Of a DNA stretch of 13,829 bases, positions 1 through 13,829 are shown one piece after another; the stretch's first letter is position 1; each line of letters opens with the position of its first letter. Position numbers and translations under genes: made by a program. The notes under the pieces were generated by a model, which worked only from the letters and a program-made list of their open reading frames with translations, was not told where the DNA came from and made no database searches. Source of the DNA: a virus; the UHGV virus genome UHGV-0094592. The stretch is one strand, 5' to 3'.

Positions 1-1409
1 CCATGGTCAGAGCCGAAGAACAGGAAGTTTTTACGACCCAGACTGACCGCCCGCAAGGCATTTTCAGCGATGTTGTTGTCGATTTCCACCCAGCCATTAC
101 TGCAGTACACGTTCAGGGCCTTCCACTGTTTCAGTAGGTATGCGAACGCTTTTGCCGTATCCGAGTGACGCGACAGTGTTTTCATCTGTTGCTGTATCCG
201 GTCATACAGTGACTGCATCAGTGGCGCGGCTCTTGCTTTTCTTGCCGCCAGACGCTGTTCTGCTGAACATCCCCGGACTTCTGCCTCGATGGTATACAGT
301 TCACCGATACGCTGCAGGGCTTCCGTGGTGATGTCGGTTGGCACTCTTGCATGCACATCGTGGATTTTTCTCCGGGCATGGGCCATACACGCAGCTTCCG
401 TTATTCTGCCGGATTCGTATAACGCCCGGTAACCACCGTAAGCATCTGCCTGAAGCACACCGCTGTAACCGGCTAGGTGATTCTGTGGATGGATACCTTT
501 CCGGTCCGGGCTGTACGCGAACCAGACCGCCGGGGGCATCTGTGAACCGGCGTTACGGTCATCACGGACATAGACCCACAGCCGGGCAGTTCTTGTTTTA
601 CCACTGCCCGGCTCCTGGACCGGAACGGGGATATCATCCGCATGAACTTTACCGGGCATCAGTACATACTGGCGCAGGACGTCATACAGCGGCTCCAGCA
701 GTTCAGCAACGGCACCGGTCCAGCGACCCAGTGTGGCACGGCTCAGCTCCACGCCCTGACGACGGTATATTTCTGACTGGCGGTATAACGGCAGATGGTC
801 TGCATATTTTCCAGCGACAACATGGGCCAGAAGCCCCGCTCCGGCATAACTGCGTGCAATGGGTTTTGAAGGCACCGGAGCCTGCACGATATGGTCGCAC
901 CGGCAACAGGCCAGTTTCGGACGTTGTGTTTCGATAACCTTAAAGGCGCTGCTGATAAGCTCCAGTTGCTCTGACACATCACATCCCAGAGAACTGAGTT
1001 CGCCACCACAGGCAGGACAGCATTCCTCTTCCGGCCGGATAACCCGGGTTTCTCGGGGAAGTGAGGCCGGTAACGGTTTACGGGCTGAAGACTGGCGCAG
1101 TGCAGATGGCAGTGCCGGGTCATATTGCTCACCCAGCGTTTCCGCCATTTCTTCCTGAAGTGCGCTGATTCGCTCCTGTGCTTCCTGTATCTGTCGTTCG
1201 GTTTTTGCGCGAAGTTTTTCTGAGCTTTTACCGAACTGCATGCGCTGCAGTTTTGCAATCAGCGCCTTCAGCCGGTTGATTTCGGAAGCATAAGCCGCCA
1301 CCCGCAGTGAGAGCAGGCGGTTATATTCGGCCATCTGGCGGATGGTGTCCTGTTGCGTCTGCAACAGCGCCCGCAGGCGGGCATTCTCATGAGCAAGTGA
1401 GGTGTCCAT
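1..1409 (-). CDS. tnpC: IS66-family transposase TnpC (orf3), 5' 469 codons; 3' end lies beyond the left window edge
   Basis: Uninterrupted minus-strand frame from ATG at 1409-1407 to the window edge (codon phase 5..3); absent from the ORF track because there is no in-window stop. Translation starts [25 protein letters not shown] and contains a CPACGG...CCRCDH zinc-finger-like motif and the conserved IS66 transposase core ending ...[13 protein letters not shown] at the edge. RBS GTGAGGA lies just upstream. Confidence 0.9.
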
Positions 1410-1428
1410 ATCCTCACTTTACAACGGG

Positions 1429-1776
1429 TTATATACGGATTCCAGCGCGTTCTGTTCGTTTCGGGTGCTTCCAGTTGATACCTTCAAGAAGCATAGATAA
1501 CTGAGCCGGAGTAAGGTGAACCTTTCCATCGCGGGTGACCGGCCAGACGAAGCGGCCCCGTTCCAGGCGTTTGGTGAAGAGGCACAGTCCGTCGCTGTCA
1601 GCCCACAACACTTTTATCTGGTCACCCCGGCGTCCGCAAAAGATGAACAGATGCCCGGAGAACGGGTCATCCTTCAGGACGTTCTGAACTTTTGATGCCA
1701 GGCCGTTAAAACCATTTCGCATATCGGTAATACCGGCAACCAGCCAGATACGCGAACCGGCAGGGAGAGATATAAT
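1429..1776 (-). CDS. tnpB: IS66-family TnpB (orf2); conserved N-terminus begins at a non-ATG codon
   Basis: ORF track gives 1429..1722 (MRNGFNGLASKVQNVLKDDPFSGHLFIFCGRRGD...), but the same frame continues upstream without a stop as ISLPAGSRIWLVAGITD-MRNGFNGL, matching the IS66 TnpB N-terminus as I recall it. The only codon at the conserved start position is ATT (1776-1774), overlapping the tnpA TGA stop. Confidence 0.75.
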   Translation of the reverse strand: MISLPAGSRIWLVAGITDMRNGFNGLASKVQNVLKDDPFSGHLFIFCGRRGDQIKVLWADSDGLCLFTKRLERGRFVWPVTRDGKVHLTPAQLSMLLEGINWKHPKRTERAGIRI

Positions 1777-2387
1777 CAGTGGCTGCTCCCTTTCATTTCG
1801 CGGATAAGTGTCTGTAATAACGCCGGCGTCAGTTCACCTTTCAGCCTGAGAGTTCCGGCCGGCAGAACCAGCTCACAGCACAGACTGTCGGGCGGTGTAT
1901 TTATCTGCTCAGGTTCCTGTGCGGGTGCCGGGATTTTATTATCCGGCTCCGGCGTTAACGTCACGGGAAGTAGCGATGTTTCATGTTCGCCGGGCGGCTG
2001 CAGGCCGCCGTTACGCCAGAGATGCCGCCAGTTAAAGAGCAGGTTATCGTTGATTCCGTTCTCGCGAGCTATTTGTGCGACACAGGCACCGGGTAAAAGA
2101 GTTTGCTGAACAAGTCTCCATTTAAACTCCTGTGAAAATCGGTTCCGGCGGTTTTTCTCTGTTTTCACAGTCTGAGTTACTGTCGGGGCTGAAGGGTATC
2201 GCCCCGGGAAAAGAGCCCGGGCCAGTTGCATGCAGGAATATTCACCGGAAAGAGGCCAGTCAGCGAATATCTGGTGAAATCGCCTCACCAGAGAAAAAAT
2301 GGCGGTTTTGCTGACACCGGTCTGCGCAGAAATGCGCGGGTACGACAGTGACTCGTCAAATCTCAGTTGTAGCACACGCAGGATCAA
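1776..2387 (-). CDS. tnpA: IS66-family accessory protein TnpA (orf1) with a predicted N-terminal HTH; start codon uncertain (TTG at 2387 or downstream)
   Basis: 203-codon minus ORF directly upstream of tnpB. HTH-like segment ISAQTGVSKTAIFSLVRRF and the conserved IAREN-GINDNLLFNWRHLWRNG motif typical of IS66 orf1. Confidence 0.8.
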   Translation of the reverse strand: MILRVLQLRFDESLSYPRISAQTGVSKTAIFSLVRRFHQIFADWPLSGEYSCMQLARALFPGRYPSAPTVTQTVKTEKNRRNRFSQEFKWRLVQQTLLPGACVAQIARENGINDNLLFNWRHLWRNGGLQPPGEHETSLLPVTLTPEPDNKIPAPAQEPEQINTPPDSLCCELVLPAGTLRLKGELTPALLQTLIREMKGSSH

Positions 2388-2420
2388 TTCCGGATTATCT
2401 GCCAGTACCGCCTTTTGTGC

Positions 2421-2699: not shown

Positions 2700-2954
2700 A
2701 TGCATTCGGAAAATATTGCGGCTTACGTCGGGCTGGATGTGCATAAAGAAACGTTGGCGGTTGCTATTGCTGCACCTGAACGGCTTGGCGAAGTTCGTTA
2801 TTATGGTACGATTAACAACGAAGCCCAGGCTGTACGTCGATTATTTCAGAAATTGCAGGGACTTTACGGAAACATTCTTTCCTGCTATGAGGCTGGCCCC
2901 TGTGGTTTTGGGCTATATCATCAACTCACGATATTTATAATTAAATGCGCATAA
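2700..2954 (+). pseudogene. IS110-family transposase, N-terminal fragment (84 codons, truncated)
   Basis: MHSENIAAYVGLDVHKETLAVAIA...CYEAGPCGFGLYHQL carries the IS110-family N-terminal signatures (GxDxxK and CYEAxG). Strong RBS GGAGG 7 nt upstream. Full-length IS110-family transposases are several-fold longer as far as I recall, and this ORF ends after only 84 codons. Confidence 0.75.
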
Positions 2955-3005
2955 CTTATTGAATTTAACCAACAAACATCGCTGCAAATAACGTTAAAAA
3001 TCGCA

Positions 3006-3030
3006 AATTAACTACACCATTAACTACACC
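3006..3030. repeat. Island-boundary direct repeat, left copy (AATTAACTACACCATTAACTACACC; tandem 12-mer ATTAACTACACC x2); candidate att/arm site
   Basis: Perfect 25/25 identity to 13622-13646; imperfect homology continues about 45 bp to the right of both copies. Confidence 0.75.
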
Positions 3031-3521
3031 GTTCGGTGCACTGTATGCAACAATGCGGAACAAATAGACACAAGCGACGGGCTATACCGTTATCATTTTC
3101 CGGCTATCCGCCATGAAGCTGGTGGATGATCACGGATAAACCGTTATGGAAGTCCCCATATCGGCATCATGCCCACCAGCGAGATTAGTTATCTGGTTGC
3201 TGATGGGAGGCTGACGAACCTCGATGCTAGGGTGCGCAAAACTAGTGAGACCTTTTTTCTCTGCAACAGGCCCATAATTCGCGTTTTCTTTGTCTGCCGT
3301 AAGGTGGGGGATTTTTGGCGGATCCAGCAATGGCGCGGATTTTGTGATTTTTTATAGATAGACCTCATCTATCAATCCCGTGCACACCTTCCCAAAAAAA
3401 GTTTTCGAACCTGCGGCGATGTGAACAAGGGTAGGCGGGCGGTCCCATAAGCAATGAGGTGTAGGGATTTCTATCCCCCTGGGGGTATTAAACACCACCC
3501 GATTTAAATACCGTCTTTTTT

Positions 3522-3556
3522 GTCACTGTGTGTCACTCTCCGTCACGGTATGTCAC
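3522..3556. promoter_or_regulatory. Four helically phased GTCAC repeats (10-bp period); candidate protein-binding array
   Basis: GTCAC at 3522, 3532, 3542 and 3552, immediately downstream of the 93-aa gene stop (3563). Confidence 0.45.
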
Positions 3557-3562
3557 CACAAG

Positions 3563-3844
3563 TTAACGTCGTAACCGTTCCGGCTTCTTCCAGTGGTAAG
3601 TAATTTTTTCTTTCTCTTGGTACATCTGCACGCGGCGACGGTACGACAACATCTCCAGAACTCTGGCGCGTATGTTGCGCATATCCACGCCGTTAAGCTC
3701 GATACCGTCACGGCGCATCACCTCAGCAACAACACGCACATAATTTTCAGCGGTCACGCTGTCCGGCTGCGTGGCCTGTTCGTCAGCCTGCTGGCTGATT
3801 CCGGTAACGCGGCGGATTAATCGCAGTATTTCGGCTTCTGTCAT
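3563..3844 (-). CDS. Hypothetical protein (93 aa) downstream of TerS; possible packaging accessory factor
   Basis: ORF with RBS GGGGG 4 nt upstream of the ATG (3844); basic C-terminus. No recognisable family from sequence alone. Confidence 0.6.
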   Translation of the reverse strand: MTEAEILRLIRRVTGISQQADEQATQPDSVTAENYVRVVAEVMRRDGIELNGVDMRNIRARVLEMLSYRRRVQMYQEKEKITYHWKKPERLRR

Positions 3845-3917
3845 TGTGCCCCCATCGCTCTGATAGCCTGGTGTCGTCAGGTCCTTCCTGGAATTATGGC
3901 CCGTTACGGGGCGGCGG

Positions 3918-4460
3918 TTACTCGCCTTTGTTCTGTAGCAACTTCTCAGGCGCGCTTCCGGTAGTTTCCATCAGGTAATCAGCCAGTATCTGTGGCAGGT
4001 TTTCGTCAAGTCTTGCACATGCGTTACATGCTTTGGCTATTTCCCTTTTTAGTTCATCCAGCATATACGGCCTTATATCGGGAAAGCGCCTTTGCATTGT
4101 GAGCGGGAGGCTGTCCATGATTGATGAAATCTGACTCGCTAGTTTTGAAATCGCGTAGATGCAAAACTTTGTATCAATCACCTCGCCGCGTTCGCGCTCG
4201 TTTTTAAGTTCCTGCGCTTCCGCCTGTGCTGTCAGCAATCTGATTCTTACGCGTAAAAGTTCATCATCATCAATCTCGCCTTTGTCGTTTGTAAGCTGGT
4301 TAATTGCATTGTTAACCCTATTGTCTATCACGCTAGCAACATCATAAAACGCCTCACGGCCTTTACGCTCAACGGGAGTTACTCCCCACTTGTCGAACGC
4401 TGTCGCACTTACGCGGCAGCTTTGCGCCATAGTTTTTTTGTTCATCAGGTGCGATTTCAT
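3918..4460 (-). CDS. Terminase small subunit, phage lambda Nu1-like
   Basis: Translation (...RLLTAQAEAQELKNERERGEVIDTKFCIYAISKLASQISSIMDSLPLTMQRRFPD...) matches lambda gpNu1 as I recall it (RLTRAQADAQELKNARDSAEVVETAFCTFVLSRIAGEIASILDGLPLSVQRRFPE). ORF track start is GTG 4472; ATG at 4460 has RBS GGGGA and ATG at 4445 aligns with the Nu1 N-terminus (M..NKK). Confidence 0.85.
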   Translation of the reverse strand: MKSHLMNKKTMAQSCRVSATAFDKWGVTPVERKGREAFYDVASVIDNRVNNAINQLTNDKGEIDDDELLRVRIRLLTAQAEAQELKNERERGEVIDTKFCIYAISKLASQISSIMDSLPLTMQRRFPDIRPYMLDELKREIAKACNACARLDENLPQILADYLMETTGSAPEKLLQNKGE

Positions 4461-4472
4461 CAATATCCCCAC

Positions 4473-4637
4473 TTAGTTAAGGTTTCAGGTTGGTGTGTTG
4501 GTGTTATCTTTCCCTTTTTATTCATAGAGATAGAGCGAAAAACAAAACCACCACCACCAACCCGAAAAGGCTCATAAATAGCGAAAATCCGCAAGGTCGC
4601 CGCCCCGTAACGGGTCCATATGCCGGAAAGGACCCGT
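4473..4637 (-). other. Lambda-type cos site (cosQ-cosN-cosB) with exact cosN 12-mer GGGCGGCGACCT (minus strand, 4605..4594)
   Basis: Minus strand reads ...TTTACGGGTCCTTTCCGG-CATATGGACCCGTTACG-GGGCGGCGACCT-TGCGGATTTTCGCTATTTATGAGCCTTTTCGGG. Lambda right and left ends read ...TTTACGGGTCCTTTCCGGTGATCCGACAGGTTACG / GGGCGGCGACCTCGCGGGTTTTCGCTATTTATGAAAATTTTCCGG. It lies directly upstream of the Nu1-like gene, as in lambda. Confidence 0.85.
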
Positions 4638-4660
4638 AAAAAAAGCCGGATTTCTCCGGC
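4638..4660 (-). terminator. Rho-independent terminator after the capsid operon (stem GCCGGA/TCCGGC, 7-T run on minus strand)
   Basis: Hairpin 4645-4660 followed on the minus strand by TTTTTTT (4644..4638), 6 bp downstream of the 137-aa gene stop. Confidence 0.7.
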
Positions 4661-4666
4661 CTTATG

Positions 4667-5080
4667 TCAGATGGTTTTCAGTATGCGATCGACGTCGCCT
4701 TCATCGCCCTGGTTTCTGCCGTCGTATGCCATGCCGGGTGATACGGCTTTCGGGCTGTGCATGTCCATAAAGTTTTCAAAGGCTGCGGTAAGCTCCGGCG
4801 CAACCTTCGGGCGCTCCTGCTCTATGGTCATGTTCAGGATTTCACGAGCATTATCGACGCTAATACATGGCACGTTTGCCATTGCACGTAACAGCGGCTG
4901 ATAGTCGTTATGTTCATGAAGCGCCATAATCGCATCAGCGCGCGGCTTGTCCTGCTCTTCCAGTTTGTTGAGTTGATATACGGCCTCGTAGGTTGATAAA
5001 CCTCTGTCAGCCATTGCCCGCGCTTCTGCTTTAAATTTACTCGCCAGCGGTAGCGCCATGATGCTTTCATTCGTTGCCAT
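4667..5080 (-). CDS. Hypothetical capsid-module protein (137 aa), acidic; possible scaffold or size-determination factor
   Basis: ORF with RBS AGGGGAA 3 nt upstream of ATG 5080; sits between the gpD-like gene and the terminator/cos. No confident family assignment. Confidence 0.6.
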   Translation of the reverse strand: MATNESIMALPLASKFKAEARAMADRGLSTYEAVYQLNKLEEQDKPRADAIMALHEHNDYQPLLRAMANVPCISVDNAREILNMTIEQERPKVAPELTAAFENFMDMHSPKAVSPGMAYDGRNQGDEGDVDRILKTI

Positions 5081-5092
5081 CGTTTCCCCTGC

Positions 5093-5428
5093 TTATCGCG
5101 CCAGCGGCTGAACGGATACGCCAGAACCCGCAAAGGCGGCGCATTTTTTCGCGTCAGTGTCGGCGCTCTCAGGCCAGTTTACGGCGGCGATATTAAATAT
5201 CCCCGTCTTGTAACACTGTGCTGATTTCTGCTTTGACGTGTCCACGGGGTACGAGGTCAGATAAACAGCCTTCCCAGATTCCTGACCATCCCACGGCTTA
5301 AACTCGCCATTGTCCGCCAGCATCAGCGGGGTAAATTCCTGAATAACGCCAGCATCAGCGGCAAAATGTACCAGCGTCGTGGATACCTGCTGACTGCCTG
5401 CAAATAACTCAATGTATGGAGTGTCCAT
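5093..5428 (-). CDS. Head decoration protein, lambda gpD-like
   Basis: ...FTPLMLADNGEFKPWDGQ...YKTGIFNIAAVNWPESADTDAKKCAAFAGSGVSV versus recalled lambda gpD ...MTPLMLDTSSRKLVAWDGT...[44 protein letters not shown] 4 nt upstream of the ATG. Confidence 0.8.
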   Translation of the reverse strand: MDTPYIELFAGSQQVSTTLVHFAADAGVIQEFTPLMLADNGEFKPWDGQESGKAVYLTSYPVDTSKQKSAQCYKTGIFNIAAVNWPESADTDAKKCAAFAGSGVSVQPLAR

Positions 5429-5439
5429 AGAATCCCCCG

Positions 5440-6495
5440 TTAAGCAATTTTGACGGTAACAAATTTGCGAATATCTGCCGGAACCGGCTGCGGTGCGCTG
5501 TGCGTCTGCACGTACTCAATCGCCGGATCGCCGTCCTCAATCCAGTTTTTCGGGTAGTACATGTTTTGCGTTGCGCCTGTTCTTACCGCTTCCTGATCCA
5601 TAATCGCACCATAGGCCACCAGCCCTTTGTTGTTGGTGTTGCCCAGGACCAGCAAATCAGGATCAAGGAAATATTTTTCTGTGCCGTCGCTGTCAGTGTA
5701 TTTGCCGGAATAGACGATAAGGGCCAGATCACCAAGATAGCCTTTAAAGCTCACCACTTCGCCCAGGTTTTTACATGCCAGCTCTGCGGCGGATTCTGAA
5801 CCACGGGAGAGATCGTACAGTTCACGGAATTTTTTAAAGCTGCGTAACATGCGCCATACATCAACGCCCATAATCATGACGTTTGCGGGGCAACCTGCCT
5901 GATCTGCGTATAGCTCAATGTCATAGATTGGGTCGTGTATGTCTTTGTCCTGCTCTGACCATTTTTTACCGTCGGCCTGCTCTATGATGTTTTTTTCCGG
6001 TATCTTCCAGTCGATTTCATAGCGCTCTATGCCTTCGCCCTCAATGATGTTTTTTCCGGTCGTTATCGCATTCACCGCCAGCCATTCCACGCGCGCTTTA
6101 ATGGCGTTTATCTGGCGGCGCATGTTGCCAGTAATCAGGCGCATACGGCGGTAGGTAGGGTCGTTAAGCTGTGCCGGATCTTCTCCAGCCATGCGCATTA
6201 TTGTTTTTAATGGATCGATTTCGTGTTTTGGCTTCATGTAGCCAGGGCGAATAATGCTGGTTTCGTACCCTTTATCGCGCTGAACCTGGCTACCAACCAT
6301 AGGCGAACAAAACGCCGACATAGTGACTTCTTCAATATCCAGGTTATCTAACATGATGTCCTGTGTGTTGAATGTCGCCACGTTCGGGAAAAACAGCGCG
6401 GTAAACAGCGGACTAAATTTAAATTCCGCAATATCCTCGCGATTCAGGTACGCGAAAAGCTGGTGTGTGTTAAGTGCCATTGCTTTGACTGCCAT
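5440..6495 (-). CDS. Major capsid protein, lambda gpE-like (351 aa)
   Basis: Conserved blocks EFKFSPLF, RPGYMKPKHEIDP, EDPAQLNDPTYRRMRLI, WSEQDKDIHDP, VSFKGYLGDLALIVYSGKYTD, LLVLGNTNNKGLVAYGAIMD and YPKNWIEDGDPAIE align with recalled lambda gpE (KFKFDPLF, TPGYVKPKHEVNP, EDPQNLADPAYRRRRII, WSKRDKSTYDP, VSYKGMYGDVAIVVYSGQYVE, MVLGNTQARGLRTYGCIQD, YPKNWVTTGDPAREF). [11 protein letters not shown]; start overlaps the upstream stop (TAATG). Confidence 0.9.
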   Translation of the reverse strand: MAVKAMALNTHQLFAYLNREDIAEFKFSPLFTALFFPNVATFNTQDIMLDNLDIEEVTMSAFCSPMVGSQVQRDKGYETSIIRPGYMKPKHEIDPLKTIMRMAGEDPAQLNDPTYRRMRLITGNMRRQINAIKARVEWLAVNAITTGKNIIEGEGIERYEIDWKIPEKNIIEQADGKKWSEQDKDIHDPIYDIELYADQAGCPANVMIMGVDVWRMLRSFKKFRELYDLSRGSESAAELACKNLGEVVSFKGYLGDLALIVYSGKYTDSDGTEKYFLDPDLLVLGNTNNKGLVAYGAIMDQEAVRTGATQNMYYPKNWIEDGDPAIEYVQTHSAPQPVPADIRKFVTVKIA

Positions 6496-6701
6496 TATTC
6501 ACCCCCATGAGTCTGATTTATGCCCAGCGCCGCGCGTAAATAGGAGCGTACCTGCCAGCCTGTTGACGGCTCAACCATCGCCAGCGGATCAAGTCCTGCC
6601 GCAATGCCTGCTTTTACGTTCTGCTGGTGGCGTTCCTTGAGCGCCTTCACGATGTCGGGGCTTATGTACACCGAAACACCGCCTTTTTTCTCTTCAGCCA
6701 T
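6495..6701 (-). CDS. Hypothetical small protein (68 aa), first gene of the capsid operon, translationally coupled to the major capsid gene
   Basis: RBS AAGAGGAA 7 nt upstream of ATG 6701; its stop overlaps the capsid ATG. Confidence 0.6.
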   Translation of the reverse strand: MAEEKKGGVSVYISPDIVKALKERHQQNVKAGIAAGLDPLAMVEPSTGWQVRSYLRAALGINQTHGGE

Positions 6702-6729
6702 AGTAAGAAATTCCTCTTTGACTTAAAAA

Positions 6730-6786
6730 ATTATAACTGGATGTTCATCCAGCTCTGATTATAATCAGGATTGCATTTTGTGCAAT
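6730..6786 (-). promoter_or_regulatory. Candidate capsid-operon promoter (perfect -10 TATAAT on minus strand, weak -35) with three adjacent palindromes upstream
   Basis: Minus-strand TATAAT at 6735..6730. Palindromes TGGATGttCATCCA (6738-6751), CTGATTATAATCAG (6755-6768) and ATTGCAttttgTGCAAT (6770-6786) lie immediately upstream in minus sense. Confidence 0.5.
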
Positions 6787-6866
6787 GATATTGAGTTGTG
6801 TTGCAAATTATGAAATGATGATCCCGCTCATGTGTGTCAGTGCACCAAAAAGCCTCATATGCAAAA

Positions 6867-6903
6867 GCCCGATAAGCCACCTCTGACCTTATCGGGCTTT
6901 TTT
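6867..6903 (+). terminator. Strong hairpin with a T-run on both strands (plus-strand T6); bidirectional terminator-like element
   Basis: Stem GCCCGATAAG/CTTATCGGGC (10 bp, 11-nt loop) followed by TTTTTT on plus and TTTT on minus. Confidence 0.55.
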
Positions 6904-7078
6904 ATCTGCCTGCAAAGATGTCGAACGAAAATTAACCACAACCATCATCTTTTTTGCATCAAAACAATTAAAAACAATAAATTACGCTCATGATGATGAT
7001 GACGATAAAATCACAAAAATGCGCTTTTTTCCGCGCCTCCCGCCCCGTGTTCAGGCCCACCCCGCCAGGAGGACCCGT

Positions 7079-7100
7079 AAAAAAGCCGGATTGCTCCGGC
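7079..7100 (-). terminator. Rho-independent terminator after ssb; sequence paralog of the cosQ-side terminator at 4638-4660
   Basis: Stem GCCGGA/TCCGGC with loop, followed on minus strand by TTTTTT; 17 bp downstream of the ssb stop. About 35 bp are near-identical to 4631-4660. Confidence 0.7.
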
Positions 7101-7116
7101 TTCTGTCACTCGTCGC

Positions 7117-7539
7117 TTAAAACGGTATGTTATCCCCGTACGGATCATCATTCCCCGCCTGTTGTTTTGCCCTGTTCAGCGCGTCAGTAGCCTGGCCCTG
7201 TTGACCTTTTTTGCCGCCCAGTCGCGCCGTTCGCGCACTGATTACACTGTCTGCGATAACCTGCCAGCCCTGCCGCGTTTCTCCGTTCTGCCCAGTCCAC
7301 TGGCTGATCTGCATGTTACCCGCCACGCTCAGGAGTTCACCCTTGCGGTGCCTTTCCAGTGCTTCGGCCTGTCTGCCAAATGCCAGGACGGATAACCACA
7401 TCGTCGCCGTTCCGTCATCTGCCTGGCTGCACGGAAGGGGGACCGCCATACGCGCCAGCGTCATCGGTGTGCCCTTGCTGGTCTGTTTTACCTGCGGGTC
7501 GTCCACCAGCCGCCCGTAAGCTGCTATCTGTGCTGTCAT
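7117..7539 (-). CDS. ssb: Single-stranded DNA-binding protein (SSB-like OB-fold with C-terminal ...DNIPF tail)
   Basis: 140 aa. N-terminal OB-fold pattern resembles E. coli SSB; the protein ends ...NDDPYGDNIPF, an acidic IPF tail like the DDDIPF tail of E. coli SSB. Start overlaps the upstream gene stop (ATGA). Confidence 0.8.
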   Translation of the reverse strand: MTAQIAAYGRLVDDPQVKQTSKGTPMTLARMAVPLPCSQADDGTATMWLSVLAFGRQAEALERHRKGELLSVAGNMQISQWTGQNGETRQGWQVIADSVISARTARLGGKKGQQGQATDALNRAKQQAGNDDPYGDNIPF

Positions 7540-7787
7540 GATTCCACCTCTCCGGTTTTAACGTTGATGGTTGTTACCTGTTCCGCTTCGGCAATCTCCC
7601 GCTCTGTCAGCGTGGCAAAATTTGCCGCCGTCGTGGTCATGAATGCGCTTATCAGTTCGGGATGTGCTTTCGCGTATCCTTCCCCCGCGTGGCGGTCTAT
7701 CGTTCTGATTGCCACCTTTAAAGCGTGCTCTGTCATGTCTAACGCTTTATATTTTGGCGCTGTCTTATCTCTGGTTTTTCTGGTCAT
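7536..7787 (-). CDS. Hypothetical protein (83 aa), translationally coupled to ssb
   Basis: ORF immediately downstream of the iteron region; stop overlaps the ssb start. Confidence 0.55.
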   Translation of the reverse strand: MTRKTRDKTAPKYKALDMTEHALKVAIRTIDRHAGEGYAKAHPELISAFMTTTAANFATLTEREIAEAEQVTTINVKTGEVES

Positions 7788-7796
7788 TCCTCACTG

Positions 7797-7990
7797 CTCC
7801 CCACTTTTACTACCCACTTTTTGAAATTACCCAACGTCTCCCCACTTCTTTTTTTTGTGATTCTAACGTGATGTTTTTCAATGTGTTTTTTATTCCCCAC
7901 TTTTTGGGGTATATACAGGTGGGAAAGTGGGGAATCACGTTTCAATTTTGTTAAATTCCCCACACTCCCCACTTTTACTACCCACTTTTT
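7797..7990. repeat. Putative origin of replication: iteron array (CCCCACTTTT family) flanking an AT-rich core
   Basis: 23-bp direct repeat CTCCCCACTTTTACTACCCACTTTT at 7797-7821 and 7965-7989. Additional TCCCCACTT copies at 7837-7848, 7893-7905, 7957-7966 and an inverted copy at 7924-7934. Located directly 3' of the helicase gene. Confidence 0.7.
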
Positions 7991-9404
7991 ACAGTGGGCG
8001 CACGTCATCACCGTCAATAGCAATAACGCCATCACCTTCCAGCTTGTACAGCCAGCGCCGGAAGTGTTTCATCTCATACCCCAGCTTTTTCATATCATCG
8101 CGCAACAACGGAATAGTGCATTTATCTCCGCGCTGTGTGCGTGAACGGATACAGCCCCATAGCGCGGCATGATTCTCCGTCTTGTTCCCGGCTTCCTCGA
8201 TGCGCTCCAGTTCAACGGGTGGGCGCGGCTTATCCACAACAACCAGCGACGTGATTAACTCCCCGTCAGTGTCGGTAAAAAGCTCCACCACACGTAAATC
8301 GTATGCGGCCTCTTTCAGTTCCTCCGCGTCCTTCATTTTTGTGCAGGAGATAACCAGGGCTTCACTGTCTGCACCTTCACGGCGAATACGGTATTCAGCG
8401 TCCAGAGATGCACGAAATGCACTGGAACCACGCGCCCCCTTTGTTTCATCCTTGCCGGAATGGTGAACCACCAGCACCGTGGCCCCTGTGCGGCGTTTCA
8501 GTTCGTCACATCCACGGATAAACGCCCCCATATCCCGCGCGTCATTTTCATCATTACCGCCAAAGCAACGCGCCAGCGTATCAAGAATAATCATGCGTAC
8601 CGGTTTACCCGTTTCCCGTTCAACCTGGCGGGAAGCGATGACCATTTCATCAACATCAAGCGGGACTGCCGGAAAAATCGGGCGGTTTACCAGGTACAGA
8701 TTTTCCACCCGTTCATCATTAACGATTTCCCATGCCTTGATACGGCGGGGGACACCAATGCCACCTTCACCGACAACATACATCACCGAACCATGCGCCA
8801 CCCTGCGGCCTCCCCAGTGACGGCCAGTGGCAACATGACACGCCCAGGAACACGCGAGGAACGATTTATAGGAACCGCTCGCGCCGTATGTGCTGCACAA
8901 TGAATTAGCCGGAATCACGCCCTTAACGACATAATCAAGCTGTGTGTCGTACCCTGCAGATCCAATGCTCATTGGTAGCGTGGTTTTTCGCTGGCTGTAT
9001 TGCTCGTCAGTAAGTATTTCCCCGCGCTCTGCCTGTTCGCGGATCCGTTGCAGGTAGTCGTGCCAGTTCTCCAGCTTCTGGCTGTGCATTCCATCAGGGT
9101 AATAATTCGCATCCCGTACACCTGCCGCCGCCAGCTTTTGCCCGATAGCATTAATATTTGACGGCTTGATGTGGCCTGCCTTGTACAGCCGGACACAATA
9201 GCGACCATCGTCGATAATTTTCAGGTCTGCCAGTTCGTCAAGCTGGCTGTCTCCCAGCCATACAGGCGGGACGTTATCACCAGCAAGTCGCCCGTCCTGT
9301 TCCTGCCACTGTTTCGCGTGCGCCCAGGCATCACTACCCGCAAAAATAATGACTTCGGTCATTTTGTCGTGTGGCTGTTTTTTTAAGTTCGGTGCCAGTT
9401 TCAT
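7989..9404 (-). CDS. Replication helicase, RepA/AAA_25-like P-loop NTPase with an N-terminal domain of unknown function
   Basis: 471 aa. P-loop-like YGASGSYKSF, Walker B-like RMIILDTLARCFGG and the VLVVHHSGKD motif typical of RepA/AAA_25-type helicases. RBS AGGGG. Start overlaps the upstream stop (ATGA). Confidence 0.8.
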   Translation of the reverse strand: MKLAPNLKKQPHDKMTEVIIFAGSDAWAHAKQWQEQDGRLAGDNVPPVWLGDSQLDELADLKIIDDGRYCVRLYKAGHIKPSNINAIGQKLAAAGVRDANYYPDGMHSQKLENWHDYLQRIREQAERGEILTDEQYSQRKTTLPMSIGSAGYDTQLDYVVKGVIPANSLCSTYGASGSYKSFLACSWACHVATGRHWGGRRVAHGSVMYVVGEGGIGVPRRIKAWEIVNDERVENLYLVNRPIFPAVPLDVDEMVIASRQVERETGKPVRMIILDTLARCFGGNDENDARDMGAFIRGCDELKRRTGATVLVVHHSGKDETKGARGSSAFRASLDAEYRIRREGADSEALVISCTKMKDAEELKEAAYDLRVVELFTDTDGELITSLVVVDKPRPPVELERIEEAGNKTENHAALWGCIRSRTQRGDKCTIPLLRDDMKKLGYEMKHFRRWLYKLEGDGVIAIDGDDVRPL

Positions 9405-9700
9405 TTTTTGCCCCTGAATGCGTTAATCATGTTTTTCATTTTCTGAATATTTGCCCGTGCCTTTGCGTTGCTGGTGGGCTGTTTGCGTGGTGTGGCCTGT
9501 ATCAGTGAAAAATCACGCCGGAACTGATAAGCAGGCATCACGCAGTCATAGCCGTACCCATCACGGCGGTAAGTAACGCACCGCCCCGCCACGCTTTTAA
9601 TCGTTACCGTGCCACCGTAGTTATCCCGGAAAATATCGCCGGGGCGGATTTCAGGCCGAGGGAGACCACTGGCAGTAAAGCCAGAATTTTTCTGTTTCAT
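9401..9700 (-). CDS. Hypothetical protein (99 aa), basic
   Basis: ORF with GGAG upstream; operon member immediately 5' of the helicase gene. Confidence 0.55.
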   Translation of the reverse strand: MKQKNSGFTASGLPRPEIRPGDIFRDNYGGTVTIKSVAGRCVTYRRDGYGYDCVMPAYQFRRDFSLIQATPRKQPTSNAKARANIQKMKNMINAFRGKK

Positions 9701-9706
9701 GTTTTT

Positions 9707-9925
9707 TTACTCCAGAGGCAGATTTTTAGCGGCGAGTTCAATATCAGATGTCAGAGAAACCTGTGTATTTGCCAGGTCTAACAACAAAGAAATAAGAATT
9801 TCCTCTCTGCTATCGGATTCATCGGTGCTAAGGCTGTTCATCCACATATTGACGACTTCCCTGATTTTTTTCGCAGAGTGCAGGGCTTCAAATGCCAGGT
9901 CTTCAATATCATGTTTATTTCGCAT
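9707..9925 (-). CDS. Hypothetical protein (72 aa from internal ATG; ORF track lists 9707..9991)
   Basis: ATG at 9925 has RBS GGGGG and avoids overlap with the upstream gene; the longer track ORF would overlap it by 77 nt. Confidence 0.5.
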   Translation of the reverse strand: MRNKHDIEDLAFEALHSAKKIREVVNMWMNSLSTDESDSREEILISLLLDLANTQVSLTSDIELAAKNLPLE

Positions 9926-10127
9926 AATCGCCCCCGCGTAACTGGTCTGCACTAACACCCGATTTAGTGAGCATTTCAGAAAATCCCGCAAGAGTGCTGA
10001 TAAATTCGTTTTCCATTAAACGGCACTGGCATTTAACCCGGCCTTTTTCCAGATACACCAGTACGCGCCCCGTATAATCTGACGGCACATTCAGCACTAC
10101 AGATAAGTGCGCTTCATTATTATTCAT
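9915..10127 (-). CDS. Hypothetical protein (70 aa)
   Basis: Strong RBS GGAGGTG 7 nt upstream of ATG 10127. Confidence 0.55.
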   Translation of the reverse strand: MNNNEAHLSVVLNVPSDYTGRVLVYLEKGRVKCQCRLMENEFISTLAGFSEMLTKSGVSADQLRGGDYAK

Positions 10128-10356
10128 GGCTCACCACCTCCATATCAGCCATGATAATTTTGCTGGCCTCATTCAGTGCCATATCAGCACTAAGTTGCAT
10201 TACAGCCAGTGAATGAGGAACGAAAGCCCCGGCATATTCTGTTTCACTGGTAGCGTGCTTATGCGCCCTGTCCGCGATAACAGAAATATCAATCAGCGCA
10301 TCAATCAGTGTTTTGATTGCTTCGGCGGCTGCGTCCGGACGGGTGTTATTGCACAT
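10120..10356 (-). CDS. Hypothetical protein (78 aa)
   Basis: RBS GGGGG upstream of ATG 10356; 8-nt overlap with the downstream gene. Confidence 0.55.
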   Translation of the reverse strand: MCNNTRPDAAAEAIKTLIDALIDISVIADRAHKHATSETEYAGAFVPHSLAVMQLSADMALNEASKIIMADMEVVSHE

Positions 10357-10552
10357 GGTGCACCCCCTGACGAATACGGGCGGCGAATACCATCACGCAG
10401 CCAGCCGGTGATTGCTGACGGGCTTCCTGTTCGCTGGTGGCCTCAATGGTAATCACGCGCGGTTGTGCCGTACTCAGGGCGATAAAACGCCAGATGTATT
10501 TATTCAGGTTGTGCGAGTCCCGCCCTTGCGGGTGTATGGTATGATTTCTCAT
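10346..10552 (-). CDS. Hypothetical protein (68 aa), first gene of the replication-module operon (ORF track lists a TTG-start version 10346..10642)
   Basis: ATG at 10552 is preceded by GAGG. The longer version would extend into the operator/promoter region. Confidence 0.5.
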   Translation of the reverse strand: MRNHTIHPQGRDSHNLNKYIWRFIALSTAQPRVITIEATSEQEARQQSPAGCVMVFAARIRQGVHHVQ

Positions 10553-10571
10553 AGCAGCCTCGATAATCTTG

Positions 10572-11762
10572 CTATCGTTGGTGGTTAGACGCCCCGTATG
10601 TGTTTCCGGCACTGCGGGGCGTTGCTCTTTGTATTTCAACAATTCTTTTGGTGTGTTTCATGTTATGAGCGCATGAAACACACGTCAAGGCTTTTTGTAT
10701 TTCTTTTTTTGTGTATACTGAAACACACCGATGATTAGGAGTTTCAGAAATGGCAACGGCTAACAAAAACGCAAAATCACAACTGACAACTGTCAGAGTC
10801 CCACTAGATGTTATGCAAGGGATGGAATCCGTTAAGCTGGACGGCGAAAGCAATGCCGGATTTATCGTAACCGCCATGCGCGGAGAAATAGCCCGCCGCC
10901 AAGCAGAAGGCAGCGGAGAAAATCCCCTTGTGTCGTCACTGGATGCCCTGGCTAAGGTCGAACAAATCGGCATCAAAGCAGCGGAAGAAATCGGGCAGCT
11001 TGTCACCGTTGCACGCGAAGAACTCCAGCGTCGCAAGACCAAAGAACCAGAGTAATCACCATCAGCGCCGTGGTGTAAGGTATTACGGCGCATTGCTATG
11101 CAGGACAACACAATGACCGATAAAGAATTGACCAAAACATTATCACCGGCACGGAAAAGACGGCGCAGAAAGATAGAGCATGAATCAGAAAGATTCGCGC
11201 CATGTGCTTTTGCTCTTGAGAAATTCCTTAAAGAGCACAGGAAAAAGCTCTCGTTGCAAACCTTGGAACGAACCAAATCTGACTGATCACATTGCCCACC
11301 AGCCGCAAATGTGGCATTGTTGGTGATGCTCATGCGTTGGGGATAACGTGTAGCTTGTGTCGAGGGGCCACCGTAGCGGGTGGCCTTTGTTTTGCCTGTT
11401 ATCCGGCAATTGTGGCGCTTCGCCACACGGTTGATATAATCCCACTGCTCAGATTCATTTTTTGCGCAGTAGGTTAATTGTTCACAAAGGCGCTCCGGCA
11501 ACGGGGCGCTTTTTGTTTTTATTAGTTTGTAGAAACCTGACTCAGAGATAATGCTCATATTCTGATTGCCGTCAGGGGTGTAAGTTAAATTTACTCCCTT
11601 TTTATCATCAAACATCTGCAACGCTCTGGCGTTAACAATATTGGTTTCACTCCCGCCAGTAAGGCCGGAAATAACCGGAATAATTTCGGCAAAATTTTGC
11701 AGATTCTGTTTTTCAGGACGAACGAAGCCCCGCCCTTGTTCGGGAGAATATCCAGTATTCAT
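10572..11762 (-). CDS. Long open frame; only the N-terminal ~100 codons (from ATG 11762) look protein-like, with a possible Bro-N/KilA-N-like motif. The rest is probably non-coding or a pseudogene remnant
   Basis: N-terminus contains IISESGFYKLIKTKS, resembling a Bro-N-type motif as I recall it. The C-terminal two thirds are Ser/Cys/Arg-rich and antisense to two plus-strand ORFs with good RBSs, and span two plus-oriented terminators. Confidence 0.3.
   Translation of the reverse strand: MNTGYSPEQGRGFVRPEKQNLQNFAEIIPVISGLTGGSETNIVNARALQMFDDKKGVNLTYTPDGNQNMSIISESGFYKLIKTKSAPLPERLCEQLTYCAKNESEQWDYINRVAKRHNCRITGKTKATRYGGPSTQATRYPQRMSITNNATFAAGGQCDQSDLVRSKVCNESFFLCSLRNFSRAKAHGANLSDSCSIFLRRLFRAGDNVLVNSLSVIVLSCIAMRRNTLHHGADGDYSGSLVLRRWSSSRATVTSCPISSAALMPICSTLARASSDDTRGFSPLPSAWRRAISPRMAVTINPALLSPSSLTDSIPCITSSGTLTVVSCDFAFLLAVAISETPNHRCVSVYTKKEIQKALTCVSCAHNMKHTKRIVEIQRATPRSAGNTYGASNHQR
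10651..10688 (-). promoter_or_regulatory. Sigma70-like promoter for the minus-strand operon (TTGACG-17-TAACAT) fully overlapped by a 12-bp inverted-repeat operator
   Basis: Minus strand -35 TTGACG (10688..10683) and -10 TAACAT (10665..10660). Operator GTGTGTTTCATG-9bp-CATGAAACACAC spans 10651-10683. Related GAAACACA sites lie at 10720-10728 and in the hairpin loop at 10596-10627. Confidence 0.6.
10750..11055 (+). CDS. Hypothetical regulator-like protein (101 aa), divergently transcribed from the island operons; candidate repressor
   Basis: Strong RBS TAGGAG 8 nt upstream. Plausible -10 TATACT (10714-10719) with an operator half-site at the predicted start. Balanced composition; N-terminal beta-strand plus helix pattern (TTVRVPLDVMQGMESVKL) reminiscent of ribbon-helix-helix proteins. 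Confidence 0.6.
   Translation: MATANKNAKSQLTTVRVPLDVMQGMESVKLDGESNAGFIVTAMRGEIARRQAEGSGENPLVSSLDALAKVEQIGIKAAEEIGQLVTVAREELQRRKTKEPE
11113..11286 (+). CDS. Hypothetical small basic protein (57 aa; ORF track lists 11098..11286)
   Basis: ATG at 11113 has AGGA 7 nt upstream; very basic (RKRRRRK) N-terminal segment. Confidence 0.45.
   Translation: MTDKELTKTLSPARKRRRRKIEHESERFAPCAFALEKFLKEHRKKLSLQTLERTKSD
11366..11393 (+). terminator. Rho-independent terminator (stem GGCCACC/GGTGGCC, then TTTGTTTT) for the plus-strand unit
   Basis: Perfect 7-bp stem with 6-nt loop and a T-rich tail on the plus strand. Confidence 0.6.
11490..11520 (+). terminator. Second plus-strand rho-independent terminator (stem GCGCTCCG/CGGGGCGC, GCAA tetraloop, TTTTTGTTTTT)
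   Basis: 8-bp stem with one G-U pair, GNRA-type loop, and 11-nt T-rich tail. Confidence 0.65.
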
Positions 11763-11814
11763 GGTTAGATCTCTGTATTAGTGGATGGGTGGCGGCTGTG
11801 TGCCGCCAGCCTGA

Positions 11815-12003
11815 TTAGTGAACTGCCTCGCAGCTTTCCTTCCATGCCAGAACTTCGGATAAAGACCAGCCAACGGAACGACCGCCGAGCTTACGCCGTG
11901 ATGGGAATTGTCCGGTTTTTTCCAGGCGGTACCGACATGAACGGCTCAGGCCTGTAAGTTGCTGACATTCTTTTTCACGTATAAAGCGATCTGTGCTTAA
12001 CAC
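11815..12003 (-). CDS. alpA: AlpA-family (prophage CP4-57-type) transcriptional regulator, 62 aa from GTG start
   Basis: Motif ...CQQLTGLSRSCRYRLEKTGQFPSRRKLGGRSVGWSLSEVLAWKESC is the AlpA/Vis-type HTH signature. GTG at 12003 is preceded by AGGGGGA. ORF track lists a longer 11815..12171 version. Confidence 0.8.
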   Translation of the reverse strand: MLSTDRFIREKECQQLTGLSRSCRYRLEKTGQFPSRRKLGGRSVGWSLSEVLAWKESCEAVH

Positions 12004-12288
12004 AATTCCCCCTTTGATATTTCTTAAAGAGTTATTTGGTGTCCTATTGTGTTGTGGTGCGTCGGATTGTGTCAGGGTGTTTATGGAATGGCAAACACTG
12101 GCGGCGGTCATTTTACAGAAGTGTGGTAATGAGAATAAAAACTCTTTTAATTCATTGTGGTGCAAAGGCATAAAATTCTGTTTTTACGCCTTTTTTACAT
12201 GTTTTTAAGAGTGATTCGCCAATGTACAAAAAGCCAGTAAAACGACTGAAAATCAACTTTTTAGGGTGTCAGTCAGATGTTAATCAAG

Positions 12289-12346
12289 TTTGTTCCAGAT
12301 TGTTCGCCGTTGTTCGTCGTGGTGTCTCGTTGTTTCACGTTGTGTC
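12289..12346. promoter_or_regulatory. Cluster of TTGTTCG-like direct repeats between int and alpA; candidate regulator binding sites
   Basis: TGTTCC 12291, TTGTTCG 12300, TTGTTCG 12310 (10-bp spacing), TTGTTTC 12330, TTGTGTC 12340. Confidence 0.4.
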
Positions 12347-12370
12347 AGTTCTAAAAAATCGCAAAAAAAA

Positions 12371-13621
12371 TTATATTTCTCTGGCTATTGGCAGTGTGGT
12401 TACGTTTTTGTGAGTACCCGCCAGTATCTCTAACCGCTCTGTCCACATGTCCAGCGCATTACGTTTCGCATCGAGATAACGGGAGTGGTTATAGACTCGC
12501 TGCATCCCTGGCATCTGGTGAGCGGTGAGTTGTTCGACAATATGCGGATCCACGCCTAAATCGTTCAGCATCGTGGTAAACGTGCGCCGTATATCGTGTA
12601 GTGACCAGTGCGGATGGTTTAATTTTTTGTGCATGAATCTGCCGTATTGCGACACACTGGCTTCCTGTTTCAGTTCCCCGAGTAATAGCCCTGTGTGTCT
12701 GTTCTGCTCCACCAGCTGCGTGACGAACGGTAAAATGCTTTCCGGTATTGGCCTGAATATGGCGACCTTCGTTTTGCTGTGCTCTTTCGGTACTGTCCAG
12801 AGCATTTCCTTAAAATCCCACTCCCTGATCTCCGATAATCTCAGTTCTCCGGTTCGGCAGCCGAACACAATCAGGAGGCGGATTAGTGCGCTGTAGTAGG
12901 GCGGGAATATTTTTTTATCCAGCGCCTGTAATAATTCGCCAAGTTCTTTGTTGCTCAGCACGCGTTCGCTTATGCCTGGTTTTTTGCCAACGTCCACCAC
13001 GTTAAGATCATCCAGAACGTTACTGACTGCGTAGCGACGTTTACGGCAGAACTTAAGCGCCTGTTTACACGCCTGCATCATGTGACCAGACGTTACAGGG
13101 GATTTTTTGCGTATCCGGTCAAAACAGGCCAGCCAGTGACGTAACTCGCATTTATCCAGTGGCATATTGCCAATATGCTGTATGACGTGATTATTCAGGC
13201 GGCTTTTCAGGCATACGTAATCGACACGGTTTTCCTTTACGTGCATTTCCAGCCAGTAGCTGATCGCATCACCCACCGTTACCGGCTTTAGTGCTTCCTG
13301 TATGGAGTAATTAAGCTCATGGCGTGGATTTTTTCCTTCTGCCAGCCATGCGCGACACTGTGCCGCTTTTTCCCTGGCTGCTTTCAGGCTCAGATCAGGA
13401 TAATTTCCCAGCTTCAGGCGTTCCGGTGATACCTGGCGTCCAGCTCCTGCTCTGTAGGTGAAATACCAGGTTAATAAGCCGCTGGTGGAATGCCTGACGC
13501 TCAGGTTTCCACCGTCATTAAGAAATGTGGTTTTTGGGGCTGGTGTGCCGTTGATTTTTCTTAGCTGTGTATCGCTCAGTTTGTTAAGTGCTCTGCTCAT
13601 AATTTTGAATCCGGTCATCAC
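12371..13621 (-). CDS. int: Tyrosine recombinase / integrase, P4-type
   Basis: 416-codon ORF. N-terminal region LSDTQLRKI...YPDLSLKAAREKAAQ resembles P4-family integrase N-termini. C-terminal catalytic motifs include HDIRRTF (HxxR) and a tyrosine within RVYNHSRYLD. ORF-track start is GTG 13621; in-frame ATGs at 13618 and 13600 are alternative starts. Confidence 0.9.
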   Translation of the reverse strand: MMTGFKIMSRALNKLSDTQLRKINGTPAPKTTFLNDGGNLSVRHSTSGLLTWYFTYRAGAGRQVSPERLKLGNYPDLSLKAAREKAAQCRAWLAEGKNPRHELNYSIQEALKPVTVGDAISYWLEMHVKENRVDYVCLKSRLNNHVIQHIGNMPLDKCELRHWLACFDRIRKKSPVTSGHMMQACKQALKFCRKRRYAVSNVLDDLNVVDVGKKPGISERVLSNKELGELLQALDKKIFPPYYSALIRLLIVFGCRTGELRLSEIREWDFKEMLWTVPKEHSKTKVAIFRPIPESILPFVTQLVEQNRHTGLLLGELKQEASVSQYGRFMHKKLNHPHWSLHDIRRTFTTMLNDLGVDPHIVEQLTAHQMPGMQRVYNHSRYLDAKRNALDMWTERLEILAGTHKNVTTLPIAREI

Positions 13622-13646
13622 AATTAACTACACCATTAACTACACC
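13622..13646. repeat. Island-boundary direct repeat, right copy (AATTAACTACACCATTAACTACACC), immediately upstream of int
   Basis: Identical to 3006-3030. Confidence 0.75.
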
Positions 13647-13829
13647 GATCATTGCACAAGGGGGTACAACGTGGAACAAGTTGGAACAAGAAAAATTGCA
13701 ATGAGCTTAAAAATCAAAAACATAATGAACAACGTGGCACATTATGAAACAGCAAAAAACACTAATTTATAAAATCACAGCGATGAATATAAAATGCCAG
13801 GTTATTGCCCCTTCCCGCATACCAAAATC

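Follow-up and report, generated by a model that had tools for sequence, protein, structure and literature searches.

The stretch analysed here, 13,829 nucleotides of one strand of the virus genome UHGV-0094592 (the window), carries EcCIDi14, a phage-inducible chromosomal island (PICI) that was catalogued as a reference island in 2018 and is close kin of EcCICFT073. Window positions 3006-13646 are 100% identical to positions 249048-259688 of Escherichia coli clone D i14 and i2, and the same 100% match was found in six further complete genomes (eight full-length matches in total). Table S1 of Fillol-Salom et al. 2018 (ISME J, PMC6092414) lists a PICI 'EcCIDI14' at CP002212 249047-259688, with an att site core that is the reverse complement of the 26-bp repeat seen in the window, and PMC10111431 places EcCIDi14 within an IS110 transposase gene. 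The coordinates, size, repeat and IS110 location of the Table S1 entry all agree with the element in the window. Because the match to this published entry is 100%, the finding is a rediscovery of a named reference PICI. The element is very probably a classical Gram-negative PICI of the EcCICFT073/EcCIIHE3034 family, about 10.85 kb long, sitting at a secondary site in the transposase gene of ISEc45.

Its anatomy follows the description of PICIs given by Fillol-Salom et al. 2018. The integrase gene lies at one end and is followed by alpA, both on the minus strand, and the replication gene is followed by an iteron origin (coordinates in Table 1). The size of 10.85 kb falls within the range of approximately 8-15 kb, tail and lysis genes and a complete head gene set are absent, and the island belongs to the reference list itself, with identical coordinates. 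The primary attachment site lies between smrA and abgR and next to mcaS, the window copy being located at the secondary ISEc45 site.

An earlier note on this stretch, made from the sequence alone, had described a compact and almost unidirectional satellite, as opposed to a decayed lambdoid prophage, with int, alpA, a helicase with iterons, SSB, TerS, cos and gpE/gpD-like capsid genes. Our analysis agrees: family scans recovered the listed genes, the array is carried almost wholly on the minus strand, and terL, portal, protease, tail and lysis genes are missing from the element and from the 15 kb flanking it on each side in clone D i14. The same note's suggestion that this was not a standard described architecture does not stand, as EcCIDI14 has been published, its gene order recurs in EcCIIHE3034, and EcCICFT073 shares the capsid/decoration/cos module. 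Capsid, decoration, cos and terS occurring together are an ordinary, already known combination among E. coli PICIs.

Kinship with other satellites

The prototype EcCICFT073 has the same order of int, alpA, YlcI/YnfO, Icd-like gene, small open reading frames (ORFs), DUF4222, replication gene and SSB, continuing with a 68-aa ORF, capsid, decoration, a 137-aa ORF, cos, a specificity gene and a 93-aa ORF. The two islands are 94% identical in nucleotides over the segment that begins with the capsid module and includes cos1 (window 4564-6903), and 88% identical over int-alpA. Both islands have two inverted cos copies and a doubled motif at the same spacing. They differ in the packaging-specificity gene: in EcCICFT073 this is rppA (144 aa), whose product re-targets the TerS of the helper, and in EcCIDi14 it is a full Nu1-type terS, accompanied by a different cosB. 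They also differ in the replication gene, with a 584-aa primase-family protein in EcCICFT073 where EcCIDi14 has a RepA helicase. In addition, EcCICFT073 carries perC, which EcCIDi14 is without, and integrates at ycfD-phoQ.

EcCIIHE3034 (NC_017628.1 920272-930825) has the same gene order as EcCIDi14, including the 351-aa capsid, 111-aa decoration and 137-aa proteins, and shares with it the 180-aa TerS, the 68-aa and 93-aa proteins, the SSB accession, the cosB-like region and the doubled motif. It differs in its primase-family replication protein, used in place of the RepA helicase, in its attachment core (ATGATAGTTAT, at cspD-clpS) and in its integrase, which is 74% identical.

Capsid-forming PICIs (EcCIEDL933 / CP-933C) have an int-alpA-replication backbone of the same family and the same doubled motif. 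However, they carry an HK97-type capsid, protease, portal, connectors, HNH and P27-type TerS with TerL, none of which is present in EcCIDi14. Membership in that group was rejected for EcCIDi14, as no TerL, portal, prohead protease or head-tail connectors were found in any of its ORFs. Because the capsid-forming PICI of O157:H7 strain F6321 (locus L003 1-14154) shares the backbone and the motif with classical PICIs but has a full HK97-type head and terminase module, the packaging/head block is the swappable part of one backbone family. Among the Staphylococcus aureus pathogenicity islands (SaPIs), SaPI1 and SaPIbov1 use a satellite TerS to redirect the helper large terminase. The principle is alike, but the SaPIs act on pac (headful) packaging while EcCIDi14 is cos-type. 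The Ccm protein of SaPIbov5 is a satellite capsid homolog that makes small capsids, whereas EcCICFT073 showed no size redirection. Neither SaPI TerS nor Ccm has a sequence relationship to the EcCIDi14 proteins.

Junctions, attachment site and doubled motif

The earlier note had bounded a 10.6-kb element by perfect 25-bp direct repeats. Perfect repeats are indeed present, at 3006-3031 and 13622-13647, though they are 26 bp long, each consisting of ATTAACTACACC twice, and are not the ends of the element. Window 2635-2929 matches an intact ISEc45 (locus L005 1496-1790) with 99.7% identity, and the alignment resumes at window 13769-13829, with a 10-bp overlap between the two segments. Since ISEc45 stops at 2929 and resumes at 13769/13779, the insert spans approximately 2930-13778 (~10.85 kb). 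Island-specific sequence begins at 2930, and the window from 2926 onward matches the end of the island in strain E110019 (TCACGATATTTATAAT). The uninterrupted ISEc45 sequence at the insertion point reads ATCAACTCACAGCGATG. An empty site predicted from the repeat boundaries was found in none of 5426 genomes, with at least 80% coverage required. From the mapped ends, the junction of the excised circle is predicted to be ...CACTAATTTATAAAATCAC/GATATTTATAATTAAATGCG..., with window 13778 joined to 2930.

By these alignments the direct repeats are internal motifs and not recombination junctions, and the published 'att core' of EcCIDi14 is the doubled motif, lying approximately 77 and 132 bp inside the true junctions, a refinement that is new here. 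With the relocated ends, primers for testing excision need to be designed differently. Features of the same type may also underlie other doubled 'cores' of Table S1, an example being TTTGTAGTTATACG twice at yejM-luxR.

In every relative examined, the doubled motif occurs twice, approximately 77-79 bp (distal copy) and 130-134 bp (integrase side) from the crossover centre. This spacing is shared by four islands whose att cores differ: EcCIDi14, the E110019 island (core TCACGATATT), EcCICFT073 (core GGACATATTT) and EcCIIHE3034. In the O157 capsid-forming PICI the integrase-side doubled motif was seen, only that copy lying within the fetched locus. PMC10111431 reports that helper-embedded PICIs have a different doubled motif with the same geometry, at 81 and 132 bp, and describes it as unique to them. 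The spacing observed here extends this attP geometry to classical PICIs. From its position, the doubled motif is probably an arm-type integrase site.

Islands with the same integrase and AlpA accessions sit between smrA and abgR in E110019 and VG12A2. Comparison of the smrA-abgR island with K-12 gave a 24-bp overlap, from which attB reads TTATTCATTCACGATATTAATAAT, beside mcaS. This overlap agrees with the published core of EcCIEC2733.1 at lysR-smrA (Table S1, PMC6092414). On the evidence of these alignments we assign the primary site to the interval between smrA and abgR. ISEc45 shares essentially only TCAC with the core, and the window copy therefore used a secondary site. Scans of the window for tRNAs and for Rfam families gave no matches, and thus the att site is not a tRNA or known sRNA gene in the window.

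Packaging, the capsid block and rival explanations

The cosN of EcCIDi14 is an exact copy of that of lambda and lies in a 36-nt stretch approximately 90% identical to lambda positions 1-36 (counted by hand on the alignment). In an alignment of lambda, EcCICFT073 and three terS-type islands, cosN and approximately 24 nt beyond it are invariant. In contrast, the cosB-like region that follows is common only to the terS-type PICIs (Di14, IHE3034 and E110019) and is unrelated to the cosB of EcCICFT073 or lambda, so that the cosB type co-varies with the presence of terS versus rppA. The terS-type and rpp-type siblings, with a shared cosN and different cosB, make a clean natural pair for packaging-specificity swaps. 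A second, cos2-like site abuts the terS stop codon and forms an inverted repeat with 4598-4634 (81% over 37 nt). EcCICFT073 also has an inverted second cos, and when cos2 was tested there its deletion raised lambda-mediated transfer.

The TerS product matches Pfam Phage_Nu1 (1.3e-23) and phrog_57 (8e-53). It is 37% identical to lambda Nu1 over residues 3-180 of 181, including the C-terminal segment. In lambda, the C-terminal segment of Nu1 contacts gpA. TerS is also 35% identical to the TerS of the icd prophage of CFT073, presumed to be the published helper, phage 4. We considered whether TerS could be a long Rpp variant and rejected this, as BLASTP against RppA gave no alignment; the island thus does not belong with the Rpp-type cos PICIs, its 184-aa product being unlike RppA and a full-length Nu1 homolog. 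A PDB sequence search with TerS returned only a spurious ankyrin-repeat match and detected neither RppC nor the Nu1 N-terminal domain. Fillol-Salom et al. 2018 noted that the islands of IHE3034 and 18098 encode TerS (PMC6092414). Of 5426 complete E. coli genomes, 722 contain the terS-plus-cos segment with a coverage of at least 80%. A terS-terL pair matching the one in the CFT073 icd prophage at approximately 100% identity is present in clone D i14/i2 and in five more carriers of the island, and a plausible helper is therefore resident in them; the lambda-type pair of clone D i14/i2 lies outside the window, at NC_017652.1 1369199-1371647. Based on these homologies, TerS replacement is the most likely packaging mechanism.

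The adjacent block encodes homologs of head proteins. The capsid protein is 94.6% identical to c1499 of EcCICFT073, 43% to lambda gpE and 45% to the capsid protein of the CFT073 helper, while the decoration protein is 97.3% identical to c1500 and 37% to lambda gpD. The product of orf137 is 89.8% identical to c1501. In the gpC of the CFT073 prophage it aligns at 36% identity with residues 416-493, in the C-terminal 80 residues that make up the Nu3/scaffold region. Described in the literature as 'hypothetical', it resembles the C-terminal Nu3/scaffold part of lambdoid gpC, and together with the capsid and decoration genes it makes up a shell-plus-scaffold set from which only the portal and protease are missing. 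Values of dN/dS (0.12-0.20 for capsid, 0.05-0.15 for decoration, 0.17 for terS and 0.11 for int) indicate purifying selection. A capsid gene is carried by 21 of the 29 reference Gram-negative PICIs.

The smrA-abgR islands (loci L002 5121-6907 and L010 4657-6443) carry a capsid-module allele different from that at window 4667-6495. Its capsid and decoration proteins are 56% and 53% identical to those of the window, and a 127-aa helix-turn-helix (HTH) protein replaces orf137. The same islands share int, alpA, helicase and terS with the window island, several by identical protein accessions. The capsid block, judged by these comparisons, is exchanged as a module.

Helper-dependent induction, packaging, high-frequency transfer and helper interference have been demonstrated for EcCICFT073 only, and by analogy we infer the following life cycle for EcCIDi14. 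A lambdoid helper, on SOS induction or infection, would switch on alpA, and AlpA and the integrase would excise the island, the doubled ATTAACTACACC motifs approximately 77 and 132 bp from the core probably serving as arm-type integrase sites. The RepA-like helicase, iteron origin and SSB would then replicate the island into concatemers. The island's Nu1-type TerS would bind the island-specific cosB beside the lambda-identical cosN, and its conserved C-terminal region would recruit the helper large terminase, redirecting packaging to island DNA. EcCIDi14 would thus replace TerS where EcCICFT073 relies on a heterocomplex of Rpp and helper TerS. The DNA would enter proheads made by the helper, to which helper tails would be added. 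Four island copies amount to 43.4 kb, inside the lambda packaging range, and packaging as an approximately four-copy multimer (~43 kb) appears most likely; EcCICFT073, too, is reported to be packaged as a multimer.

Several observations weigh against this account. The life cycle is taken from experiments on the sibling EcCICFT073, and the proposed TerS-TerL interaction and cosB sites are drawn from homology. The arm-site role of the doubled motif is based on position, and PMC10111431 considers AlpA or another protein as a possible binder of such motifs as well. Of the terS-type siblings, the two that were tested (EcCIIHE3034 and EcCI18098) showed poor transfer or none out of their native hosts, and an efficient helper for terS-type islands is thus not established. 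Lastly, the presumed overlap regions differ at the window copy (attL TCACGAT versus attR TCACAGC), and its excision may therefore be inefficient.

This mismatch is also a ground for supposing that the window holds a stranded PICI copy, excising poorly from its secondary ISEc45 site and inherited vertically as a passenger. Such a history is compatible with the identity of the element as EcCIDi14, and we regard it as possible without favouring it. In the presumed 7-bp overlap attL and attR share only TCAC, and the two contexts inspected among the eight full-length 100% matches (clone D i14 and GABEEC132) agree in their ISEc45 surroundings, suggesting a single event passed on by descent. On the other hand, all ORFs are intact, and the integrase and AlpA accessions are the same as those of primary-site copies. 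Tyrosine integrases, moreover, can excise from secondary sites at reduced rates, as established for lambda. Given the mismatch, the window copy may be a poor choice for mobilisation experiments.

A more radical alternative is a new satellite class that builds its own shell from the island capsid, decoration and scaffold-like proteins and depends on a lambda-like helper only for portal, protease, large terminase and tails, a reading close to the earlier note's view that the island must supply its own capsid shell. It could draw on the gpE-, gpD- and Nu3-like proteins encoded in one block, on the purifying selection on that block (dN/dS 0.05-0.20, similar to int and terS), on its retention in hundreds of genomes, and on the capsid-forming PICIs, which prove that satellites can build their own capsids. 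We nevertheless consider it improbable. The element and its architecture are already published, and in EcCICFT073 replacement of c1499, the 94.6%-identical capsid gene, by cat left transfer at approximately 1e5. Deletion of c1499 or c1500 altered neither transfer nor interference, and EcCICFT073 DNA was packaged in full-size phage capsids. Because the near-identical capsid and decoration genes of EcCICFT073 are dispensable for transfer, the notion that the shell must be self-supplied is contradicted in the closest studied relative. In the favoured reading the capsid, decoration and scaffold-like genes are conserved accessory parts of this family, and transfer probably does not need them. The function of the block, whose capsid genes are under purifying selection and yet can be dispensed with in the laboratory, is a question already recognised by the field. 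A weaker version, in which the block assembles or remodels heads with some natural helpers and terS-type islands package independently of the helper TerS, also seems unlikely, if less so than a new class. Such heads may, for example, have chimeric or reduced shells with room for one or two copies of the island, and if this were true, the lambda and phi80 laboratory assays on EcCICFT073 would have missed this role.

Head and packaging genes of lambda families, together with a cosN identical to that of lambda, would also be expected in a degraded lambdoid prophage remnant retaining cos-Nu1 and D-E head genes. This is highly improbable, and we rejected a lambdoid prophage or remnant on the basis of flanks, gene order and recurrence. 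The absence of terL, portal, tail and lysis genes extends 15 kb beyond the element, and the order E, D, Nu3-like, cos, Nu1 differs from the lambda order of cos, Nu1, A, W, B, C/Nu3, D, E. The same compact unit recurs with intact ORFs and the same ends at several att sites, and int, alpA and an iteron replicon are PICI hallmarks. Assignment to the P4-like satellites, finally, is hardly credible. The Arm-DNA-bind_3 integrase is typical of the P4 type and alpA and a size of ~11 kb would fit, but Pfam, PHROG and NCBIfam scans of all ORFs recovered neither a P4 alpha-type primase nor any homolog of Sid, Psu, Delta or epsilon, and the cos and TerS are lambda-type and not P2-type.

Other genes, gene-poor stretches and flanks

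The integrase has the same RefSeq accession as those of the smrA-abgR islands of E110019 and VG12A2. Between Di14 and CFT073 the integrases are 87% identical overall, 95% over residues 1-40 and lowest, at 65%, over residues 161-200, which fall in the central domain. The role of AlpA has been demonstrated in EcCICFT073. The divergent plus-strand unit includes two strong terminator-like hairpins (11363-11388 and 11486-11513), and its layout is the same in EcCICFT073 and EcCIIHE3034. Between the YlcI/YnfO gene and alpA, approximately 760 bp (11056-11814) contain only the 62-aa plus-strand ORF (phrog_21027) and the two hairpins. A 396-aa minus-strand ORF at 10572-11762 was discarded as probably spurious, as it overlaps the annotated YlcI/YnfO gene on the plus strand and none of the relatives has it annotated.

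Five copies of the iteron CCCCACTT lie in 7799-7974; the window as a whole has seven, where 0.39 would be expected. The position directly 3' of the helicase gene is that of the PICI ori as defined by Fillol-Salom et al. 2018 (PMC6092414). The small ORFs mostly matched families of unknown function in Pfam, NCBIfam and PHROG scans, and a PADLOC scan of them gave no defence genes.

Table 1. Features of EcCIDi14 and its junctions in the window. A slash marks a junction; aa, amino acids.
Feature	Position	Strand	Basis and remarks
5' fragment of ISEc45 (IS110-family) transposase gene	2700-2929	+	Interrupted by the island; weak DEDD_Tnp_IS110 Pfam match, RefSeq annotation
True left junction, attL	2920-2941		ATCAACTCAC/GATATTTATAAT; crossover at or beside TCAC (2926-2929); ISEc45 alignment
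Distal doubled motif (ATTAACTACACC twice)	3006-3031	+	~77 bp from crossover
93-aa conserved PICI protein	3563-3844	-	phrog_1561; 86% identical to last EcCICFT073 gene
cos2-like site	3880-3916	+	Inverted cosQ side and left 8/12 nt of cosN (GGGCGGCG, then divergent)
terS, lambda Nu1 family	3918-4460	-	180 aa annotated; ORF reaches 4472 (184 aa)
cosB-like region between cosN and terS	4475-4593	-	Inverted repeat 4483-4495 / 4555-4567; candidate TerS binding sites
cos1	4594-4640	-	Exact lambda cosN GGGCGGCGACCT at 4594-4605 and cosQ-side sequence shared with EcCICFT073 cos1
orf137, 137 aa, c1501 homolog	4667-5080	-	phrog_53 positions 494-567 of 583, E 1.5e-9
Head decoration protein homolog, gpD family	5093-5428	-	Pfam HDPD 1e-17
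Major capsid protein homolog, gpE family	5440-6495	-	Pfam Phage_cap_E 4.9e-50
68-aa conserved protein	6495-6701	-	phrog_3255; stop overlaps capsid gene start; 94% to EcCICFT073 counterpart
SSB	7117-7539	-	Pfam SSB 4.9e-15; RefSeq accession shared with EcCIIHE3034
83-aa conserved protein	7536-7787	-	phrog_1231
Iteron replication origin	7797-7991		Directly 3' of helicase gene
RepA-like helicase/initiator (AAA_25)	7989-9404	-	PICI pri-rep slot; Pfam AAA_25 3e-44, phrog_2850 7e-251
DUF4222 protein, three small proteins and Icd-like 68-aa protein	9401-10552	-	Icd-like protein at 10346-10552
Divergent unit: YlcI/YnfO-family 101-aa protein, 62-aa ORF, two hairpins	10750-11513	+	Candidate 'repressor-like switch'
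alpA	11815-12003	-	Pfam Phage_AlpA 1.3e-17; activator/excisionase of Gram-negative PICIs
Tyrosine integrase	12371-13600	-	Arm-DNA-bind_3 and Phage_integrase domains; P4-type arm-binding N-terminal domain
Integrase-proximal doubled motif	13622-13647	+	~132 bp from crossover
True right junction, attR	13769-13778		TTATAAAATCAC/AGCGATG; ISEc45 resumes; ISEc45 alignment

In clone D i14 the flanks of the island consist of pathogenicity-island and insertion sequence genes. Window 1-2420 is an IS66-family element on the minus strand, with an HTH_Tnp_1 ORF at 1776-2387, a 97-aa ORF at 1429-1722 (probably tnpB, an accessory gene of IS66), and an IS66-family tnpC ORF of at least 472 aa that runs off the left end of the window. 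No counterpart of this stretch was found in the 40-kb locus of clone D i14, and the window therefore comes from another strain carrying the same island. Inside the island, window 3075-3557 (~480 bp) has no annotated genes and gave no Rfam family match; it is absent from EcCICFT073 and 99% conserved in the E110019 island.

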